A program made the position numbers and the translations under genes. A stretch of 55,786 nucleotides of DNA from positions 1-55,786 of the forward strand of contig JBIJDH010000036.1 of the NCBI GenBank assembly GCA_044344255.1. The letters are read 5' to 3'. This stretch comes from Myxococcota bacterium. Its GTDB lineage: Bacteria > Myxococcota_A > UBA796 > UBA2385. Of the stretch, positions 1,521 to 50,998 are shown piece by piece (within the stretch, counting starts at the first letter, position 1; each line of letters starts with the position of its first letter). The notes beneath the pieces were generated by a model. The model had not been told where the DNA came from, made no database searches, and saw only the letters and a program-made list of their open reading frames with translations.

Positions 1521-2582
1521 ATGCTGTCCCTCGACGTCTTTGAGCACCCCGAGCGCCGCGAGCGCCTGATCGACCTCGGCTCGAACGAGAACCCGTTTGG
1601 GGCCTCGGCCGTGGTGCAACGCGCCATCTTGGGGGCCGCCGCCGACTGCCACCGATACCCAGAGCGGGGCGCGGAGGGCCTCCGCCAGCGGCTCGCGACC
1701 GCCCACGGGCTCAGCGTCGAGGAGGTGATGGTCGGCCCCGGCAGCACCGCGCTCATCGATCAGGTGGCGCGGGCGCGGCTCGCCCGGGGTGGCAACGCCG
1801 TCGTGCCCGCGCTGAGCTTCGTCTCGGTCGCCGCCTCCGTGCGCGCCGCGGGCGGTGAGCTGCGCCTGGCGCCGATGCAGGGCCCCTCCATTGACCTCGA
1901 CCGCATGCGCTCGCTCATCGACCGCGACACGCGGCTGGTCTACCTGCCAAACCCGAACAACCCGACCGGCGCGGCCCACCCCCGAGAGGCCGTCGAGGCC
2001 TTCCTCGAGGCGCTCCCCGACGACGTGCTGGTGCTCTTCGACGAGGCCTATCAGGAGTATGCCCAGGCCTTCGCCGACGCCGAGGGCTGGAGCCTCCCCG
2101 ATGGGCCCACGCTGGTGCGACAGGGGCGCAACCTCCTGGCACTGCGCACCTTCTCGAAGGTCCACGGCCTCGCCGGCCTCCGAGTGGGCTACGCCCTCGG
2201 CGCGGCGCCCCTGCTGCGCGGCCTCTCGGCGCAGGCGACGCCCTTCCCGGTCGGGCGCCTCGCCACCGCGGCCGCCCTCGCCGCCCTCTCCGATTCCCAC
2301 CACGTCGCCCTCTCCGCCCAGCGAAACCGCTGGGGCCTCCGGCAGCTCCGGCGGGGTCTCCAGGTCATCGGCCTCGAGCCCGCGCCTTCGGTGGCGAATT
2401 TCCTGTACGTGCCCCTCGGTGAGCCGGCCGCCCCGGTCGTGACCGCGCTCCTCCACCGCGGCGTCCGGGTGCGGTGCATGGACACCTGGGGCGCCCCCGA
2501 CGCGCTGCGCGTCGCCGTGGGGAGCCCCGAGGACAACGCGCGCTTCCTCCGCCTGCTGGCGGGCCTGCTGGCCGCCCGCTGA
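1521..2582 (+). CDS. HisC-like PLP-dependent aminotransferase (histidinol-phosphate/aromatic type)
   Basis: Motifs LGSNENP, NPNNPTG, DEAY and RTFSKVHGLAGLRVGY (PLP Lys); GGAG precedes ATG 1521. Confidence 0.9.
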   Translation: MLSLDVFEHPERRERLIDLGSNENPFGASAVVQRAILGAAADCHRYPERGAEGLRQRLATAHGLSVEEVMVGPGSTALIDQVARARLARGGNAVVPALSFVSVAASVRAAGGELRLAPMQGPSIDLDRMRSLIDRDTRLVYLPNPNNPTGAAHPREAVEAFLEALPDDVLVLFDEAYQEYAQAFADAEGWSLPDGPTLVRQGRNLLALRTFSKVHGLAGLRVGYALGAAPLLRGLSAQATPFPVGRLATAAALAALSDSHHVALSAQRNRWGLRQLRRGLQVIGLEPAPSVANFLYVPLGEPAAPVVTALLHRGVRVRCMDTWGAPDALRVAVGSPEDNARFLRLLAGLLAAR

Positions 2583-2647
2583 GGCCGGGCGACCCCGCCG
2601 CTCCTCCCTCGCCGCACGCCCCCTCTCTCCTCTCTCCGGAGTCCGTC

Positions 2648-4408
2648 ATGTCCGTTCCGACACAAAACCAAGAGGTGGTCGGCTGGGGTCGCGCCGGCGC
2701 CGCCTGGGCCTCCACCGAGACCCCGAGCCTCTCCCGCGCCCTCGCCGACGCCTTGCACGGCCTCGGCGTGGAGCGGGCCTTCGGGCTGCTCGGCGGCGGC
2801 ATCGCCCCCTTCGCCGCTGGCCTCTCGCAGAGCCCAATCCGCTTCCACAGCTTCCGCCACGAGGCCGGCGCCGGCTTCGCGGCGATCGAGGCGTATATGG
2901 CCAGCGGCCGACCCTCCCTCGCCGTGGTGACCACCGGCCCGGGCCTCCTCAACATCCTCAACCCCTTGATGGCCGCCCGGATGGACGGGGCGAAGCTCCT
3001 CCTCATCTCGGGCTTCACCTCCAGGGCCCAGGCCGGCCGCGGGGCGGTCCAGGAGACGAGCCACCAGAGCATGCCGGTCGATCTGCTGCGCCCCGGCTGC
3101 TTCTTCGACGAGGTCTGCATCCCGGAGTCCCCCGAGGAGCTCGTGCCCTTCCTCGCCCGCCTCCAGCGCGCCTGGGCTGGGCCCGGGGGCTGTGTGGCCC
3201 ACCTCGGCATGCCGCTCTCGCTCCAGACCCGCCTCCTCGAGGGCCCGCTGAAGCTCCCCTCCGGCTGGAGCATCTCGCCGCCCCGCGCCCCGACGGAGGC
3301 GCTCGACCGCACCCTCCTGCGCCTGCTCGACCCCTCCGCCCTGCTGTGGGTGGGCTCGGGCGCGAAGGGCGCCAGCGCCGCGCTCCGCCGCTTCGCCGAG
3401 GCGGCCGGCCTGCCCGTCGTGAGCTCGCCGCGGGCCAAGGGGGTCTTCCCCGAGTCGCACCCCCTCTTCGTCGGCGTCAGCGGCGCCGGCGGCAGCCCGG
3501 CGGTGCGCCAGCACTTCGCCGCGCGCCCCCCCACCACCGCGCTGGTGGTGGGCACGCGCCTCGGCGAGGTCACCTCCTTCCTCGCCCCCGCGATGACGCC
3601 GACGGTGGACTGGATCCACGTCGACCTCGACCCCGCCGCCTTCGGCGCCGCCTTCCCCGAGCGGGCCGGCCAGGGCATCGTCGCCGAAGCGGGGGGCTTC
3701 CTCACGGACCTCCACGCCCGGGCCGAGGCCACGGGCTGGTTCAACCGACGCCGCCCCGCCGAGGCCCTCCGGCCGCACACCGCTCAGGCCCTCTCGCCGC
3801 GCGCTGCGGGCGACGTCCGCCCCCCCTACCTCCTCCAAGAGGTGCAGCGCGCCGTCGTCCTGGGCAGCGACGCCCTCGTGATGAGCGAGGCCGGCACCTC
3901 GTTTACGTGGTGTAACGCCCTGCTGCGCTTCGAGGCCCCCGGCCGCTACCGCACGAGCCCGGCCTGGGGCTCGATGGGCCACTTCACCACCGGCCCCATC
4001 GGGGCCGCCCTCACCGGCCGCCGGGTGGTCACGGTGGTGGGCGATGGGGCGATGCTCATGAACAATGAGATCAACACGGCGGTGCAATACAAGGCGCGCG
4101 TGCTCTGGATCGTGCTCAATGACGCGCAGCTCGGCTTGAACGAGCACGGAATGACCGCCCTCGGGATGCAGCCGGTCGAGACACAGCTCCCCCGCACCGA
4201 CTTCGTGGCCTTCGCCCGGAGCCAGGGCGCGGACGGGCTCGCCGTGCGCACCGAGCCCGAGCTCGCCGCGGCCCTCGAACAGGCCCTCGCCGCCGAGGGG
4301 CCCTTCGTGCTCGACGTGACCATCGACCGCAGCTTCCCCTCTCCGGTCGTCGCCGAGCGGGTCGCCAGCCTGCAGCGCCAGGCCGCCGCCGCCCGCGGGG
4401 AGGCCTGA
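2648..4408 (+). CDS. ThDP-dependent enzyme, ScyA/CybE-like acyloin synthase subgroup
   Basis: FRHEAGAGFAAIEAY.ASGRP, TTGPG, RGAVQETS, GSMGH and the GDGA...LN ThDP motif. The AIEAY.ASGRP and QETS wording recalls ScyA rather than IlvB. Confidence 0.8.
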   Translation: MSVPTQNQEVVGWGRAGAAWASTETPSLSRALADALHGLGVERAFGLLGGGIAPFAAGLSQSPIRFHSFRHEAGAGFAAIEAYMASGRPSLAVVTTGPGLLNILNPLMAARMDGAKLLLISGFTSRAQAGRGAVQETSHQSMPVDLLRPGCFFDEVCIPESPEELVPFLARLQRAWAGPGGCVAHLGMPLSLQTRLLEGPLKLPSGWSISPPRAPTEALDRTLLRLLDPSALLWVGSGAKGASAALRRFAEAAGLPVVSSPRAKGVFPESHPLFVGVSGAGGSPAVRQHFAARPPTTALVVGTRLGEVTSFLAPAMTPTVDWIHVDLDPAAFGAAFPERAGQGIVAEAGGFLTDLHARAEATGWFNRRRPAEALRPHTAQALSPRAAGDVRPPYLLQEVQRAVVLGSDALVMSEAGTSFTWCNALLRFEAPGRYRTSPAWGSMGHFTTGPIGAALTGRRVVTVVGDGAMLMNNEINTAVQYKARVLWIVLNDAQLGLNEHGMTALGMQPVETQLPRTDFVAFARSQGADGLAVRTEPELAAALEQALAAEGPFVLDVTIDRSFPSPVVAERVASLQRQAAAARGEA

Positions 4409-4409
4409 G

Positions 4410-5171
4410 ATGAGCGCCCTCCCCCACCCCGCTTCTGCCCCCCGCCCCCGCGAGGGCCTCTTCGATCGGCTCACCTTCCCCGAGCGCCTCACCGGCCGGG
4501 TGGCCTCGCCGGGGCCCGATCCGCGCATCCACGGCTACTCCGTCGAGCAGGACCTCGTCTGGAACATCGACTTCACCGCGCTCTGCTTCCTGTCGCTCTC
4601 GGGCGAGCTGCCGAGCCCGGGGGAGCGGGCCGCCCTCTCCGCCGCCCTCACGCTGCTCGCCCCCCTGCACGTCGGGGAGGCCCCCGCCCACGCCGCCGTG
4701 CTGGCGCGGATCGCCGGCGCGCCGGCCACGGTGATCCCGGGCGTCGCCGCCCTCGCCCTCGGCGAGCTGAGCGCCGCCGAGCAGGCCGAGCTCGGCGCCC
4801 TCTTGCGCTTCCTCGCCGGAGAGGCGATGGCCCCTCCTCTCTCTGCGCTCCTCCCCGAGCCGACCGCAGAGGATGAACAGTCCTACGCGCGGCTGCGGGC
4901 CGCCTCCGCCGCCTGGCTGGGTGAGCCCCTGTCCCTCCCCGCGGGGGTGGTCCTCGGCCGGGTGGCCTGTGGTTACGCCCTGCTCGCTCGGCTGGGCCTC
5001 GGCGATCCCTATCGCCTCGTCACCCTGTCCACCCTCGCGCGCCTGCCCGGCGTGCTCGCCGAGGCCCTCTGTGTGCGCCCCGGCGGCGTCAGCGCCTATC
5101 CCGCCCGCCTGCCCGCCTATCGATACGTCGAGGACGGCCCCCTGGCCTCGCCCCCGACGGAGCAGCCATGA
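4410..5171 (+). CDS. Citrate synthase/citryl-CoA lyase-fold protein, degenerate
   Basis: RIHGYSVEQDL...FTALCFLSLSGELPS N-terminus and ARLPGVLAEA C-terminus; starts 1 nt after the upstream stop. Confidence 0.6.
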   Translation: MSALPHPASAPRPREGLFDRLTFPERLTGRVASPGPDPRIHGYSVEQDLVWNIDFTALCFLSLSGELPSPGERAALSAALTLLAPLHVGEAPAHAAVLARIAGAPATVIPGVAALALGELSAAEQAELGALLRFLAGEAMAPPLSALLPEPTAEDEQSYARLRAASAAWLGEPLSLPAGVVLGRVACGYALLARLGLGDPYRLVTLSTLARLPGVLAEALCVRPGGVSAYPARLPAYRYVEDGPLASPPTEQP

Positions 5172-6094
5172 GCACGCCCGCTCCCGCCCTCTCGCCCTCC
5201 CTCTCGCCCCCCCTCTCGCCCTCCCTCTCGATCGAGACCCGCGCCGGCCTCATCGAGGACACCGACAACCGCTTCCTCGGGCGCGCCGTCTTCGCTGACC
5301 TCGCCCACAGCACCGACGAGGCCACCGATCTCGTCGCCCTCGCCCTCGGCCTCCGCGCCGAGGGGCCGGAGGATCGAGACGCGCTCCGCCTGATCGCCCT
5401 CGCCACTGTCTCGCCCGACGCCCGGGTCTGGCCGCTGAAGCTCTGTCGGGTGCTCTCCTCCTACGGCGCGCCCGTCGTCGGCGTCTTTGGCGCGCAGCTC
5501 TTGACCGCCGGCTCGATCATGGGGCCCGGCGTGACCGTCGGCGCCGCCCGCGGGCTCGTGCAGGTCGCCGGAGCCGTCGCGCGCGGGGAGGACCTCGCCG
5601 AGGCGATCGCCGCCCACCGCGCCGCGAACGGAGGCCGCTTCGAGGGCTTCGGCGTCCCCTTACGGCCGGCCGACGAGCGGCAAGTGGCGCTCACCGCCCT
5701 CGTCGAAGGGACGCCCCTCGCCGCGCGGCCCTACTGGCGCCTGCACCGGGAGGTCATCGCGCAGAGCCGGACGCGCTCCCCCGACGCGCCCAACGTGGTG
5801 CTGCCGATCGCCGCCCTGCTGCTCGATCTCGGCGCCCGCCCCGAGCGCTGCGGGCTCGCCCTCTCCACCCTGATGATGCCCGTCTTCGTCGCCCACGCGC
5901 TGGAGGCCGCCGAGTCCGACGGCCTGCTCCGCGCGCTGCCGGCCTCAGTGGTCGCCTTCGAGGGCGCCGCCCCTCGCCACACCGCCACCCCGGCCCCCTC
6001 CACGGCCCCGCCCGCCCTGCGGCGACGGTGGGGCCGCGCTCCGGAGGCGCGCGAGGGCTCGGTCTACAGCCAGCCCCGACCCGCCGAACCGTGA
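5168..6094 (+). CDS. Second citrate synthase-fold protein, degenerate
   Basis: RFEGFGVPLRPADER (compare IPGFGH...DPR), PNVVLPIAALLLDLG and VAHALE; ATGA overlap with the previous gene. Confidence 0.65.
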   Translation: MSTPAPALSPSLSPPLSPSLSIETRAGLIEDTDNRFLGRAVFADLAHSTDEATDLVALALGLRAEGPEDRDALRLIALATVSPDARVWPLKLCRVLSSYGAPVVGVFGAQLLTAGSIMGPGVTVGAARGLVQVAGAVARGEDLAEAIAAHRAANGGRFEGFGVPLRPADERQVALTALVEGTPLAARPYWRLHREVIAQSRTRSPDAPNVVLPIAALLLDLGARPERCGLALSTLMMPVFVAHALEAAESDGLLRALPASVVAFEGAAPRHTATPAPSTAPPALRRRWGRAPEAREGSVYSQPRPAEP

Positions 6095-13490: not shown

Positions 13491-14027
13491 ATGCCCGAAT
13501 TCGTCACCCAGTCCGAGACCACCCGTCCACCCGAGGAGACCTTCGACTTCATCGTCGACCTCTCCCAGTGGCCGAGCTTTCGCGGCTATGGGCCCCTGCC
13601 CGGCATCGTGAAGGCAACGCTCTCCGAGCCTGTCTCCGAGACCGGGGGCGCGGGCCCGGGCCTGGGCTCCCGCATCCGGGTCGAGAACACGGACGGGAGC
13701 GTGCACCACGAGGTGGTCGTCGCCTTTGAGCGCGGTCGCCTGCTGCAGATCCGGATGGAGCTCGCTCCGCCGGTCTCCTATGTGCTCGCCAGCATCGACG
13801 AGACGGTGGAGCTCGAGCCCACCCCCACGGGCACCCGGGTGACGCGGCGCTTCGTGGTGCAGGCCGCCTCTGTCTTCAGCGCCCCGGTGGCCTGGCTCTT
13901 CGGCGGGGTGCTCCTCCGACGGGCGGTGGACGCCCACAACGTGGCGGTCTCCGCCCAGCTGGCGCGGCGAGGGTCGGGCGTGGACGGGACGAGACAGGCG
14001 CTTGCGGGAAGATCCTCCGAGGCGTAG
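13491..14027 (+). CDS. SRPBCC (polyketide cyclase/dehydrase-like) protein
   Basis: PPEETFDFIVDLSQWP...GLGSRI...EPTPTGTRVT pattern. Confidence 0.8.
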   Translation: MPEFVTQSETTRPPEETFDFIVDLSQWPSFRGYGPLPGIVKATLSEPVSETGGAGPGLGSRIRVENTDGSVHHEVVVAFERGRLLQIRMELAPPVSYVLASIDETVELEPTPTGTRVTRRFVVQAASVFSAPVAWLFGGVLLRRAVDAHNVAVSAQLARRGSGVDGTRQALAGRSSEA

Positions 14028-28673: not shown

Positions 28674-30518
28674 TCAGTCCTCGCCGGCCGCGGTCGCCTG
28701 CTCGCGCCGTCGGGCCTCGCGGGCCGCCTTCAGGCGAGTGGCGACGTGGGCCAGCGGGTCTTCGACGGGACCGCCGGGTTCGGCGAAGCCCGGCAGGCTG
28801 GGGGCGGGCGGCAGCGGCGGGGCGCCGTCACGCACCCGCGGCGGGGGCGTGGGCCAGCGGGCGAGGAGCTGTCGCTCGGCCTCATCCGCCCACGCGCCCT
28901 CGAGCGGGCGAGCGAGCCGAAGCCCCTGGTCACGAACCATGTTGATCGGCAGGCCCTCGCAGCGGGCCTCCACCCGGCAGTCCCGGCAGCGCACCGACTT
29001 CGACCGATAGGCCTCTCGGACGTGGTGGCGGGCGAGGCCGCGGACGTCGAGGCGGCCGGTGTCCGGCTCGAAGAGCGAGGGGTCCAGGCGATGGATCTCG
29101 TCCACGAGCACCGTGTGGGGGGCCGCGCAGGCCGGCAGCCCGCTCGTGCGCAGCGGCAGCCCCAGGGCCCCGAAGAGCTCGGCCGGATCGCGCACATCGG
29201 CGGCGATGGCCTCCGAGACGTGCTCGTGGCTCGGCTGGTGGACCCGGAGCCGCCCGAGCCGCTCCGACAGGGCCTCGCGGTGCTGGAGCATCCAGTCGGC
29301 GGTCTCCCGGTTCAGTCGGACCTCTACCTCCACCCCGGGGGCGAGGGGCGCCCCCACCCAGGCCTCGAGGGCCGCCGCGTCCTCGGCGATCAGGCGGAGG
29401 GGCGGCCCCGCCCACTCGGGGAGGGGCGCGGGGTCTATCACCGCCACCTCCAGGCCGGGAACGTCGGTGGGGAGCGAGCCCTGGGAGACGCCCGACAGGC
29501 CCACGCGGCTGCAGCCGAAGGGGAGCTCTGCGGGGATGTCTCCGCCGGGCGGCACGGTCCACACCTCGAAGGCGGCCGCGCTCTGACGGGCGATCACGCG
29601 GTCCATCGTGGTGCAGAGCGGCTCGATGAAGCAGTGGACGCAGCGGTCTGCCTGTCGGCACTCCAGGCGCTTGCCGGTGTCGAGGTAATTGCGCACCATG
29701 AAACGGCGGCCGTTGATCTCGTCGAGCATCTTGTGCGGATCCTGGATGAGCTCCTCCAGCCCCTCCAAGAATTCGACCGGGAAGCGGTTGGTCCAGACGA
29801 CGAAGCGCGGGTGCCGATTGAGGCGAAAGACCTTGTGCAGGACCGGCAGGTGGTCGCGCACGTCGTAGAAGAGGTCATCCTTGTTGTCGAAGGCGTTGGC
29901 CTGGGGGATGACGTGCAGGAGGTCAAACTCGGTGACCCCGACCGAGATGCAGAGCTCGACGATCTTGTCGAGCACCGCCACATTCTGCTTGTTGATCACT
30001 ACGTCGACGTTGACGATCGGGCCCGCGGGGTCGCGGAGCGCGCGCACCATGCCCTTCATCAAGCGCACGAAGGCCCCCTCGACCTGGGTGAGGTGGTCGT
30101 GCAGCTCCGCGGTGTGGCCGTGCAGGCTGAAGGTGATCTCGCCGAGGCCCGCCGCCATACACTCGCGATAGAAGGCGGCGTCGGCGAAACGATAGCCGTT
30201 GGTGACCGTCTGGACGCGGTCGTAGCCGATAGACCGCCCGTATCGGATGAGCGCGGGGAAGGCCGGGTGCAGGCTGGCCTCGCCGCCGCTGATGATGACC
30301 TTGTCGGCGCCGAGCTCCTCGATGCCGCGCCGGAGCTCCGCCTGGACCTCGGCCTCGGGGAGGAAGATGTTGCGCGGCGTGTCGGCGTCGAGGCAGAAGA
30401 GGCAGCGGCTGTTGCAGGCGGTGACCGCCCGCACCCAGTGTTTGGCCCGGTTGGCCACCCGCTCCCGCTCCAGCAGGTCGCTCCGATCGGCAGGCCCGCT
30501 CGGCCCTGTCTGCGCCAT
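28674..30518 (-). CDS. Radical SAM protein with extra Cys clusters (HxsC-like N-terminal domain)
   Basis: CNSRCLFC, SGGE, TNG, SLHG...HD.LT; additional C-x5-C-x2-C-x5-C and C-x2-C-x5-C-x-G motifs; GAGGAG SD. Confidence 0.9.
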   Translation of the reverse strand: MAQTGPSGPADRSDLLERERVANRAKHWVRAVTACNSRCLFCLDADTPRNIFLPEAEVQAELRRGIEELGADKVIISGGEASLHPAFPALIRYGRSIGYDRVQTVTNGYRFADAAFYRECMAAGLGEITFSLHGHTAELHDHLTQVEGAFVRLMKGMVRALRDPAGPIVNVDVVINKQNVAVLDKIVELCISVGVTEFDLLHVIPQANAFDNKDDLFYDVRDHLPVLHKVFRLNRHPRFVVWTNRFPVEFLEGLEELIQDPHKMLDEINGRRFMVRNYLDTGKRLECRQADRCVHCFIEPLCTTMDRVIARQSAAAFEVWTVPPGGDIPAELPFGCSRVGLSGVSQGSLPTDVPGLEVAVIDPAPLPEWAGPPLRLIAEDAAALEAWVGAPLAPGVEVEVRLNRETADWMLQHREALSERLGRLRVHQPSHEHVSEAIAADVRDPAELFGALGLPLRTSGLPACAAPHTVLVDEIHRLDPSLFEPDTGRLDVRGLARHHVREAYRSKSVRCRDCRVEARCEGLPINMVRDQGLRLARPLEGAWADEAERQLLARWPTPPPRVRDGAPPLPPAPSLPGFAEPGGPVEDPLAHVATRLKAAREARRREQATAAGED

Positions 30519-49285: not shown

Positions 49286-50998
49286 GTGGCGCCCGCGGTC
49301 CTCCTCGTCTACGCGAACCCGGCCGTCACCGGGCGCCCGGTGCCCCCCTACGGGATGGAGCAGGTCGCCACGGCGATGCGGGCCGCCGGCTGCGAGGTCC
49401 GCTGCCTCTGCCCCTTCATCGAGGCCGACCCGCTGGCCGCTCTCCGCGCCGCCCTCGCTCGGGAGCCCGAGCTCGTCGGCTTCTCGGTGCGCAACATCGA
49501 CGACGCCCTCGTGGTCCGCACCGAGCTCGGCCCGGGCGACATCGACCTCGGCTTCTACCTCGACGACGTGCGCCCCCTCGTCGCCCTGGCCCTCGCGCGG
49601 GTGGGCCCCCGGCGTGTCTTGCTCGGCGGGGCCGCCCTCTCCTCGGGCTGCCTCCCCGTGCTCCGCTACCTCGGCGCGCGCCTCGCCATCCGCGGCGCCG
49701 CCGAGGACCTCGTCTTCGCCCTCGGGCAGCAGATGGCCGGCGGCGGCGAGCCCCACCTCCCCGACGATCCGCGGGTGGTCGACCTCGACCGCCTCGAAGA
49801 GCAGGACCGGCTCTCCGGCCTCGCGCCCCACGCCTCGCCGCCCGCCCCGCGCGGGATGGGGATGGAGCCCGCCGCCGCGCCCCGCCTGACTGAGCGGCTC
49901 CCCGCCTTCCAGGCCCTGGTGGCTGACCGCGACGGCCGCGTGCCCGTGCAGATCTCCACCGGCTGCGACCGCCGCTGCCTCTTCTGCGTCGAGGCGCGCT
50001 TCTCCGGCGGGCGGGTGGCGCTCCGCCCCGTCGACGACGTGGTGGCCGAGATCGACCACCTCCAGCGGCTCGGCATCCGCCGCTTCTGGCTGGGCGCGAG
50101 CGAGCTCAACGTGCCCGACGAGCGGCACGCGATCCGCCTCCTCCACGCCCTCCGCGGGCGCGCCCTCGACCTGCGGGTCTTCATCCAGCCCGCCCCCGTG
50201 AGCGACGCCCTGCTCGACGCCCTCGAGGGGGTCGACATCCAGGCCGTCGACCTCAGCTTCGAGCTCGGCCACCTCGACCCCACCCTGCTCCGCGCCGGGG
50301 CCGGCCCGTGCAACCTCGCCCAGATCGAGGCCCTCGCCGAGCGGTACGCCCGCCGGGGCCACCGCCAGCTCCACGGCTCGGTGCTCTTCGGCGCTCACCC
50401 CGAGGAGTCCCTCGAGAGCCTGGAGCGCGCCTTCGAGATCGCCCGCCGGCTCGACACGATCCTCCCCGACGGCCTCGGGCTCTCTTACGCCGCCGGCGCG
50501 CGGGTCTACCCCGAGACGGGCCTCGCCGACTACATCTCCGCCCACTGGGAGGCCTGCCTCCCCTCGCTCTACACCCTCCCCGGCGAGGCCCCCGACCCGA
50601 GCTTCGTGCGCCCCGTCGTCTTCTCGCGGCCGCTGTCGCCGCGCCGCCTGCTCGGGCGGGTCCGCGCCGGCCTCTCGACGCTGCGGGGCCCGGTGGGCAC
50701 GATGAACAGCGAGGCCCCGAGCACCGCCCGCGCCGTCGAGGCCGAGCGCCTGATCGACCGCGCGCTCTTCCGGCGGGCCGGCGGCAACCACCGCGAGGCG
50801 GCGCGGCTGCTGCAGGCGGCGGTGGCCTCCGACCCCGAGAACATCGAGGCCCTCTTCCTCCTCGCCGACCACCGCCACAACCACCTGGGAGACCGGGTGG
50901 GGGCCCGCCTCGCCCTCGTGCGGGCGGCGGCGGTGCTGCACCCGGGCGATCCCCGCCAGGAGGAGGTGCGCGTCGCCTTACGGGTGCTCGACCGCTGA
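49286..50998 (+). CDS. Cobalamin-binding (class B-type) radical SAM protein with C-terminal TPR
   Basis: PVPPYG, PELVGFSVRNIDD, GCDRRCLFCVE, SELN and RVYPETGL; TPR-like tail (AVASDPENIEALFLLA). Confidence 0.88.
   Translation: MAPAVLLVYANPAVTGRPVPPYGMEQVATAMRAAGCEVRCLCPFIEADPLAALRAALAREPELVGFSVRNIDDALVVRTELGPGDIDLGFYLDDVRPLVALALARVGPRRVLLGGAALSSGCLPVLRYLGARLAIRGAAEDLVFALGQQMAGGGEPHLPDDPRVVDLDRLEEQDRLSGLAPHASPPAPRGMGMEPAAAPRLTERLPAFQALVADRDGRVPVQISTGCDRRCLFCVEARFSGGRVALRPVDDVVAEIDHLQRLGIRRFWLGASELNVPDERHAIRLLHALRGRALDLRVFIQPAPVSDALLDALEGVDIQAVDLSFELGHLDPTLLRAGAGPCNLAQIEALAERYARRGHRQLHGSVLFGAHPEESLESLERAFEIARRLDTILPDGLGLSYAAGARVYPETGLADYISAHWEACLPSLYTLPGEAPDPSFVRPVVFSRPLSPRRLLGRVRAGLSTLRGPVGTMNSEAPSTARAVEAERLIDRALFRRAGGNHREAARLLQAAVASDPENIEALFLLADHRHNHLGDRVGARLALVRAAAVLHPGDPRQEEVRVALRVLDR

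Follow-up and report, generated by a model that had tools for sequence, protein, structure and literature searches.

In the described furanolide and carbazole pathways related to the locus studied here, an enzyme of the ketoacyl-acyl carrier protein synthase III (KAS III) type works on the product of a thiamine diphosphate (ThDP)-dependent carboligase. According to the accessible parts of PMC12395478 and PMC13288894, CybF carries out an O-acylation, a Morita-Baylis-Hillman reaction and a hydride shift on the ThDP product. NzsJ/CqsB1 couples the ThDP product with an acyl thioester in a decarboxylative condensation (PMC7466098, accessible part), and myxobacterial two-gene cybE/cybF pairs have been proposed to make deoxyenhygrolides (PMC8777810, accessible part). 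Here we analyze a four-gene operon located at positions 1521-6094 of a 55,786-nt stretch of DNA from a Myxococcota bacterium (hereafter the window; host genome G000, 8.2 Mb, 95% complete). It encodes an aminotransferase (gene A), a predicted ScyA/CybE-type carboligase (gene B) and two divergent proteins (genes C and D) for which structural models support a citryl-CoA-lyase (CCL) fold. The conserved unit comprises three genes, the ThDP enzyme B followed by C and D, gene A being optional, and the C/D pair occupies the slot that KAS III fills behind other ThDP enzymes.

The conserved unit of genes B, C and D

Gene B (2648-4408, + strand, 586 aa) encodes a protein with all three TPP domains and an intact ThDP motif, consisting of GDG (465-467), N491 and the catalytic E72; the Glu is present in 22 of the 23 rows of its clade, the remaining one having a gap. 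The ScyA-type models are by far its best family matches, with 544 bits for NCBIfam TPP_ScyA_rel (cut-off 1000) and 511 bits for TPP_ScyA NF035923 (cut-off 1020), versus 168 bits for the acetohydroxyacid synthase (AHAS) model TIGR00118 (cut-off 538). Its closest PDB match is BbmA. G501 of B aligns to G484 of BbmA and is kept in 23/23 clade rows; we take this position to be a Trp in AHAS and the Gly to widen the pocket. BbmA (spelled "BpmA" there) and CsmA are called CybE homologues in the accessible part of PMC12395478. More than 110 clusters lie at 56-70% identity to B.

In the ThDP tree, B falls inside a 23-row clade composed entirely of C/D-linked enzymes (support 100), within a 42-row ScyA/CybE-like clade (support 100) that includes cyanobacterial and myxobacterial ThDP+KAS III pairs. 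Outside the subclade of B, 16 of the 19 rows of this larger clade carry a KAS III partner, and the sister of the B clade (SH-aLRT 85) is an aminotransferase+ThDP+KAS III arrangement found in two genomes that belong to the same family as the window. No ilvC over the cut-off was found in G000, versus 14/14 control genomes, and the ilvD-like match was below its cut-off, which suggests that the host may be auxotrophic for branched-chain amino acids. Since no ilvC was found in the genome, a branched-chain role of B is unlikely. These results support placing B with the ScyA/CybE-type carboligases and not with housekeeping AHAS, as a previous sequence-only reading of the window had done, the carboligation of two 2-oxo acids being its predicted activity.

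The census of C/D loci gathered 59 loci, i.e., 23 from genome contigs recovered with the D profile, 16 from metagenomes recovered with the C profile, and a further 20; several are duplicates or near-copies, and they are kin, not all of them independent. ThDP+C+D was found in 55 of them, three of the others being cut by contig ends and one having a partial C. The same reading had predicted that the genes would co-occur elsewhere, and they do, as a set of three rather than the four it had expected: an A-type gene flanks 5 of the 24 ScyA-type C/D rows in the tree, upstream in two and downstream in three. The D profile defines an unannotated family with 244 clusters (50% identity) at E up to 1e-30, and a strong D match is present in 21 of the 401 genomes of the phylum, G000 included. 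The cassette is also found in the cultured Nannocystis radixulma NCELM (L016), and B orthologues exist in N. pusilla and Nannocystis sp. SCPEA4.

The unit appears in two versions. The window-type version has a ScyA-type ThDP enzyme and no further conserved gene. The second one has a BbmA-type ThDP enzyme, about 30% identical to B and nearest BbmA (442 bits), mostly with an adjoining gene for a membrane histidine kinase. The window-type D proteins form a clade (25 rows, support 100) nested among the kinase-type D proteins, and locus L035 represents a second recruitment of C/D to a ScyA-type ThDP enzyme, giving at least two moves between the ThDP clades. The fact that C/D serve two ThDP clades that are only about 30% identical, with the window-type D arising from within the other type, fits recognition of the product and not of the protein.

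Genes C (4410-5171, + strand, 253 aa) and D (5168-6094, + strand, 308 aa) have no Pfam match, and their citryl-CoA lyase matches are weak (best 2e-6 and 4e-5). The AF2 model of D (pLDDT 89) gave a Foldseek match with TMq 0.66 and E 6e-8, and its profile matched 6hxp, the CCL of Hydrogenobacter thermophilus, at 4e-20. Structural comparison of D with 6hxp (VIA) yielded Z 21.5 and rmsd 3.1 Å over 244 residues at 16% identity, the first unrelated fold appearing at Z 6.8. For C (AF2 pLDDT 90), the top Foldseek match was again 6hxp (TMq 0.58, E 1e-5), and HHalign to CCL reached 95.6% over the first 95 columns. A CCL fold is thus supported by the models for both proteins. The direct C-versus-D profile comparison was non-significant (probability 3.6%), and the kinship of C and D rests on both matching CCL; we infer that they are products of duplication and specialization. 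The true citrate synthase of the genome is encoded elsewhere.

The active site of D appears rebuilt. Compared with 6hxp, D has D-A-R-V-W-P for D-H-G-I-A-P, G-F-G-V for G-Y-G-H, and N-V-V for N-V-D. Across 150 homologues, the first segment reads D-A/P-R-x-W-P, with P (120) or A (26) replacing the His of D-H-G at residue 85; the position of the His of GxGH (V163) is V in 129, I in 9 and T in 7, and that of the catalytic Asp of N-V-D (V211) is A in 52, G in 37, V in 21 and S in 19. The Arg of R-x-x-G-x-x-A-H (G-R-V-P in 6hxp) is also missing, M236/M237 being variable with no Arg among the five commonest letters. D169 and R171 are present in 150/150 homologues, with E170 replacing the P of D-P-R, a motif whose Arg we take to be the carboxylate-binding residue. 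D has R166 (149/150), D169, R171 and N209 in common with 6hxp and adds R86, W88, K91 (143/150), R94 and E170. The near-invariant positions (137-150 of the 150 each) are D84, R86, W88, K91, R94, R166, D169, E170, R171, N209, E246 and R270. We presume that residues D1026, H900, R1065 and R976 of ATP-citrate lyase (ACLY) correspond to the fold motifs, D1026 being the Asp of N-V-D. In ACLY, D1026 is essential and the proposed general base, and H900, R1065 and R976 are CoA-site residues (PMC10115795, accessible part). The residues needed for ordinary citrate-synthase aldol chemistry are therefore gone in D, and the acyl-CoA aldol addition that the sequence-only reading had named among the options for this pair is not supported in that form.

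C lacks the GxGH...DPR loop: about 20 residues are deleted in the four C rows aligned, and the motif is missing from the 25-row alignment. G42, H94, L212, E218, P235 and Y239 are invariant in 47/47 C sequences, and R211 is kept in 39/47. Both genes are under purifying selection, with dN/dS <1 in 9/9 D pairs and 8/9 C pairs, the exception showing almost no changes; omitting that pair, C/D values range from 0.12 to 0.69 versus 0.07-0.34 for B. The predicted D:C complex scored 0.32 versus 0.01 for the best control; at least 99% of the contacts were shared between runs, and the partners had pLDDT values of 90-91. In the benchmark, 116 of the 157 solved pairs reached the mark, as did 2 of the 215 mismatched ones; those passing at <=0.60 comprise 18 of the solved pairs and both mismatched passes. 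The pass gives weak support to a complex and may stem from likeness to solved CCL/citrate synthase oligomers. D is the predicted catalytic subunit, and C its predicted partner subunit.

A single-gene form, D', was observed at three loci (L103, L104 and L105) and branches outside D. It has an extra N-terminal segment, an Arg at the position of the GxGH His and no C-terminal arm. D' shares D84, R86, W88, P89, R94, D169, E170 and R171 with D. K91 is present in 0/3 D' proteins, and its candidacy as an essential Schiff-base residue is weakened as a result. An intact ketosynthase gene begins the D' operon of L104, and a DUF2378 gene lies upstream of D' in L103 and L105.

Exchange of C/D and KAS III behind ThDP enzymes

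ThDP homologues of both clades were gathered regardless of their partner, and 77 rows were kept after dropping 5 identical ones and those <430 aa. The slot partner was C/D in 47 rows, KAS III in 21, D' in 3, and another gene in 6 (including the outgroup); one of these last rows has a KAS III gene upstream, giving a KAS III total of 21-22. None of the 77 rows had both C/D and KAS III, and no KAS III gene was found within 3.5 kb of C/D at any of the 59 loci. The ThDP tree requires at least six changes among the three partner types, and a single clade of all C/D-linked ThDP enzymes was rejected (AU p 5e-43). The catalytic Cys is retained in 19/19 of the KAS III partners. A DUF2378 gene precedes ThDP+D' and ThDP+KAS III operons that branch together. 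At locus L144, a sensor kinase gene, a ThDP gene whose product is 68% identical to a C/D-linked one and a KAS III gene follow each other with 14-nt gaps; D was not found in that genome nor in four other KAS III genomes (87-95% complete). A CybF-like gene acting in trans was not found in G000 or G003, which gave FabH-level matches only, the best KAS III of G000 being an ordinary FabH (1e-51 versus 1e-96 to 1e-144 for CybF-like genes elsewhere). Three other C/D genomes carry separate CybF-like genes.

Since C+D and KAS III exchange in one slot and never occur together in it, C+D most likely does the job of CybF, by new chemistry. The partner census thus agrees with the earlier suggestion that the pair stands in the CybF slot; nothing points specifically to the ScyC- or CybC-like role also considered for it.

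The ThDP+KAS III loci showed features of their own. In L144 (1373-10716, G386:C142), a response regulator gene and a sensor kinase gene lie between two divergently oriented ThDP+KAS III operons, and a similar regulator-kinase pair lies near a ThDP+KAS III operon in L146/L165 (G184). Tailoring genes accompany some of these loci, including an O-methyltransferase and a P450 (L009, 16008-18000), a halogenase (L164) and a luciferase-like monooxygenase (L166); L168 and L191 belong to the same group, and none of these genes recurs at C/D loci. In L171 (6144-10514), a ScyA-type ThDP gene is followed by a Polyketide_cyc2 gene (weak Pfam match), possibly representing a carbazole-like or other cyclase pathway. 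A further partner type was seen in L179 and L180, where the ThDP gene has an NAD(P)-binding dehydrogenase-like gene on one side and the gene for a very large Ser/Thr kinase on the other.

Proposed function and alternatives

Gene A (1521-2582, + strand, 353 aa) encodes a class I/II PLP aminotransferase of the HisC/aromatic type (Pfam PF00155, Aminotran_1_2, 178 bits). It is the best match of the genome to the HisC model TIGR01141, with about 247 bits, under the cut-off of 277. Its closest PDB match is the mycobacterial 4r2n, a "putative phenylalanine aminotransferase", and it forms a group with nine aminotransferases from other ThDP clusters (SH-aLRT 92), to which the hisC of the genome does not belong. 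This hisC is located in a complete his operon on contig C49 and scores 193, likewise under the cut-off. Its open reading frame (L012 5729-7468, G000:C49) has 579 aa, about 230 aa over the usual length, and is probably a fusion to a second domain. A-type genes also flank five ThDP+KAS III loci, and in two relatives, G004 and G020, the gene order of the window recurs as A+B+KAS III. A is an accessory, optional component and likely a source of aryl 2-oxo acids, in line with the role of aryl-keto-acid supplier that had been assigned to this HisC-like enzyme.

The membrane histidine kinase adjoins BbmA-type ThDP+C+D operons at L083-L093, L098, L145, L049 and L050. Its N-terminal domain, unnamed and Cys-containing, has weaker relatives for a total of 71 of the 401 phylum genomes. 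When these genomes were searched with the sensor domain, each of the 12 top-scoring matches proved to adjoin the cassette; ten of the genomes in question had contributed rows to the query and two had not. Of 20 further matches inspected, the three strongest (L144-L146) are close to ThDP genes, unlike the remaining 17, which score lower. The domain has no useful PDB match (best E 0.27) and falls in no named Atlas cluster, and its Pfam matches are all sub-threshold (Arabinose_bd in 6 of 11, HNOB in 2, MetOD1 in 2 and V4R in 1). The label "H-NOX/V4R-like", behind which we assume a clan link, is offered as a lead.

We propose, with a probability of about 0.45, that C:D joins an acyl-CoA to the alpha-hydroxy-beta-keto acid formed by B, yielding a furanone (butenolide) or an acylated acyloin, and that it would constitute a non-orthologous replacement of CybF. 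In an optional first step, A would transaminate Phe, Tyr or Trp to aryl-pyruvates, and B would couple a pair of 2-oxo acids. R86 and R171 of D would then hold the carboxylate of the acid, with the CoA ester placed at the retained GFG-P-x-R166 loop and E170 or D84 as candidate base. A decarboxylative acylation and an aldol ring closure would release CoA and form the lactone, the attack by the substrate's own hydroxyl replacing the lost hydrolysis machinery, and C would act as a scaffold subunit. The product would finally exit the cell, and the sensor kinase of the sister operons may detect it. Such chemistry suits the CCL fold, in which a keto acid meets a CoA thioester, and the intact ketosynthase at the head of the L104 D' operon is a further point in favor. 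G000:C42 130932-133900 encodes two neighboring aromatic amino acid lyases; they are a possible source of a cinnamoyl-type acyl donor, or may belong to histidine catabolism.

Several points weigh against this proposal. D has neither the ACLY-type general-base Asp nor the two His, and no conserved Cys for an acyl-enzyme, which leaves the proposed chemistry a guess. Among possible catalytic residues K91 is the most tempting, and D' lacks it. A single loop suggests CoA binding, the window operon encodes neither a CoA ligase nor an acyl supplier, and a common slot is no proof of a common reaction. The ThDP tree was a quick LG+G4 reconstruction without the characterized ScyA, CybE and NzsH, in whose place family-model scores and a pair of annotated cyanobacterial loci with ThDP+KAS III were used, and the loci are kin and partly duplicates. 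The nesting of the L144 ThDP enzyme among C/D operons has modest support (AU p 0.03) for a group that was picked after the tree was seen. As for sensing, the window operon has no linked sensor; the sensor domain has no match in G000 and is not found at full strength in five other genomes with this cassette (best 2e-15).

The loss of all the residues for thioester enolization, with the carboxylate-binding Arg kept and a new Arg added, would also suit a C:D that uses no acyl-CoA, i.e., a cofactor-free decarboxylase, isomerase or cyclase turning the unstable beta-keto acid of B into one defined acyloin, as end product or signal. AlsD acts after AlsS in this manner, and ScyC after ScyA. A Schiff base could be formed by K91 in most homologues, an operon with no acyl supplier would be expected, and a three-gene unit with no other conserved neighbor would suffice. 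Nevertheless, the enzyme that alternates with C/D in the slot, KAS III, uses acyl thioesters and is found even next to the same kinase with a ThDP enzyme of 68% identity, the GFG loop and its basic residue R166 are kept, and K91 is missing from D', so we regard this possibility as unlikely, while giving it more credit than the other alternatives. Taking the disappearance of the canonical catalytic residues one step further, C and D may lack any catalytic function and serve the ThDP enzyme as a regulatory or carrier subunit with CoA esters or the product as ligand, much as IlvH regulates IlvB. The faster evolution of C and D compared with B and the fact that they were not seen without a ThDP gene agree with this idea, and an allosteric CoA-loading role has been argued for the same fold in ACLY (PMC10115795, accessible part). 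However, one C/D family serves ThDP enzymes of about 30% identity with repeated moves between them, twelve polar or aromatic positions are near-invariant, and the pair alternates with an enzyme and not with a regulator, which makes a purely binding function distinctly improbable.

A degradative module, in which B would cleave an acyloin or a 2-hydroxyacyl-CoA, C:D would be a retro-aldol CoA lyase and the sister sensors would detect the substrate, is brought to mind by the true citryl-CoA-lyase homologues of the phylum, which lie in catabolic-looking operons with CoA ligases (L107-L113), and by sensor kinases being common beside catabolic genes. We give it little credence: B and its sister ThDP enzymes are nearest the biosynthetic ScyA and BbmA/CsmA and not 2-hydroxyacyl-CoA lyase (HACL), the neighborhood has no conserved gene for a CoA ligase, transporter or dehydrogenase, and the lyase catalytic residues are missing. 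Finally, B is one of only two ThDP-fold matches found in the genome and A is its best HisC-model match, as would be expected if they were the housekeeping AHAS and HisC in an incidental neighborhood. This explanation is hardly tenable given that no ilvC was found in a 95% complete genome, and given the ilvD-like match below cut-off, the low score of B with the AHAS model, the separate his operon with its own hisC, and the presence of B in only 5 of 60 relatives.

Returning to the acylating C:D, a broader hypothesis, which we consider doubtful as a whole, is that the CCL fold was duplicated and rebuilt into a two-subunit furanone synthase replacing CybF by convergence. The cassettes would then be myxobacterial lactone-signal synthases read by the H-NOX/V4R-like kinase in the sister operons, and the window cassette would be a receptor-less orphan making an aryl-substituted version for other cells. 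If the proposed function is true, it would give a role to a large unannotated family and add to the citrate-synthase fold a reaction that it is not known to catalyze. Because searches of genomes for furanolide clusters rely on CybE+CybF, they miss the ThDP+C+D clusters. The natural swap of C+D and KAS III behind like ThDP enzymes provides a direct experimental handle, the presence of the cassette in a cultured strain means that the product can be sought, and the linked sensors would make a myxobacterial small-molecule signaling circuit testable.

Setting of the operon and comparison with described systems

The four genes are co-oriented, with 65 nt between A and B, 1 nt between B and C and a 4-nt ATGA overlap between C and D, and no his or ilv gene adjoins them; on both points the sequence-only reading is confirmed. 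A GGAG-type site precedes the ATG of every gene, and the GC content at third codon positions is 0.91-0.95. A HAD-family gene lies upstream and a convergent cNMP-binding gene downstream, neither of which recurs at other loci. The promoter scan found 0 versus 0.0 expected and the terminator scan 0 versus 0.8 expected, and three RNA contig sets from the same study gave matches of 18-33 nt only, which carry no weight either way on expression. Upstream of the operon, three copies of a 16-nt unit span the stop of the HAD gene (1257-1313), followed by an 11-bp perfect inverted repeat (1305-1348); they could represent a terminator, a site for a regulator, or else a stutter of the assembly. Elsewhere in the window, two unrelated radical SAM genes were observed at 28674-30518 and 49286-50998, one of them with a B12-binding-like domain and TPR.

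No description of the ThDP+C+D cassette was found in the literature searched, which was mostly without subscription papers, whose cluster surveys may bear on novelty. The accessible part of PMC12247030 contains nothing on it, and one supplement of PMC8777810 mentions neither "citrate" nor "Nannocystis". Compared with the carbazole nzs/cqs systems (CqsB7 aminotransferase, NzsH/CqsB3, NzsJ/CqsB1 and NzsI/CqsB2; PMC7466098, accessible part), the window operon has no KAS III, acyl carrier protein or carbazole synthase; neither an NzsJ-type KAS III nor an NzsI cyclase gene adjoins B, and an indole substrate is not indicated. An unlinked Polyketide_cyc2 gene is located at window position 13491 and is not conserved at other loci.

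C and D resemble 6hxp and the CCL/CSH module of ACLY in fold and size, and D keeps the D of DHG, the GxG loop, D-x-R and the N of NVD. They differ in identity (16-21%), in being two genes instead of one, and in having no linked citryl-CoA synthetase or CoA ligase. The true citryl-CoA-lyase homologues of the phylum (L107, L108 and L110-L113) keep E-H-G and GFGH and occur in a recurring operon with a CoA ligase gene, several of them having further neighbors in common. With regard to B, ScyA (NF035923) and BbmA/CsmA (PDB 8x3x, 8x3z) are the best family and structure matches; B reaches about half of each curated cut-off, and there are no scy genes nearby.

The furanolide clusters, i.e., cyanobacterin cyb, maculalactone and (deoxy)enhygrolide (PMC12395478, PMC13288894 and PMC8777810, accessible parts), are alike in that a ScyA/CybE-type carboligase gene is directly followed by a partner gene, and in being minimal cassettes that take keto acids from transaminases, as proposed for Plesiocystis. 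B falls in a clade with ThDP+KAS III pairs, in a tree outside which the characterized CybE itself stands. The window operon differs in having no CybF-type or other KAS III, no CoA ligase and no ammonia lyase, and in the slot of the furanolide partner it carries two citryl-CoA-lyase-fold genes whose products have no conserved Cys.

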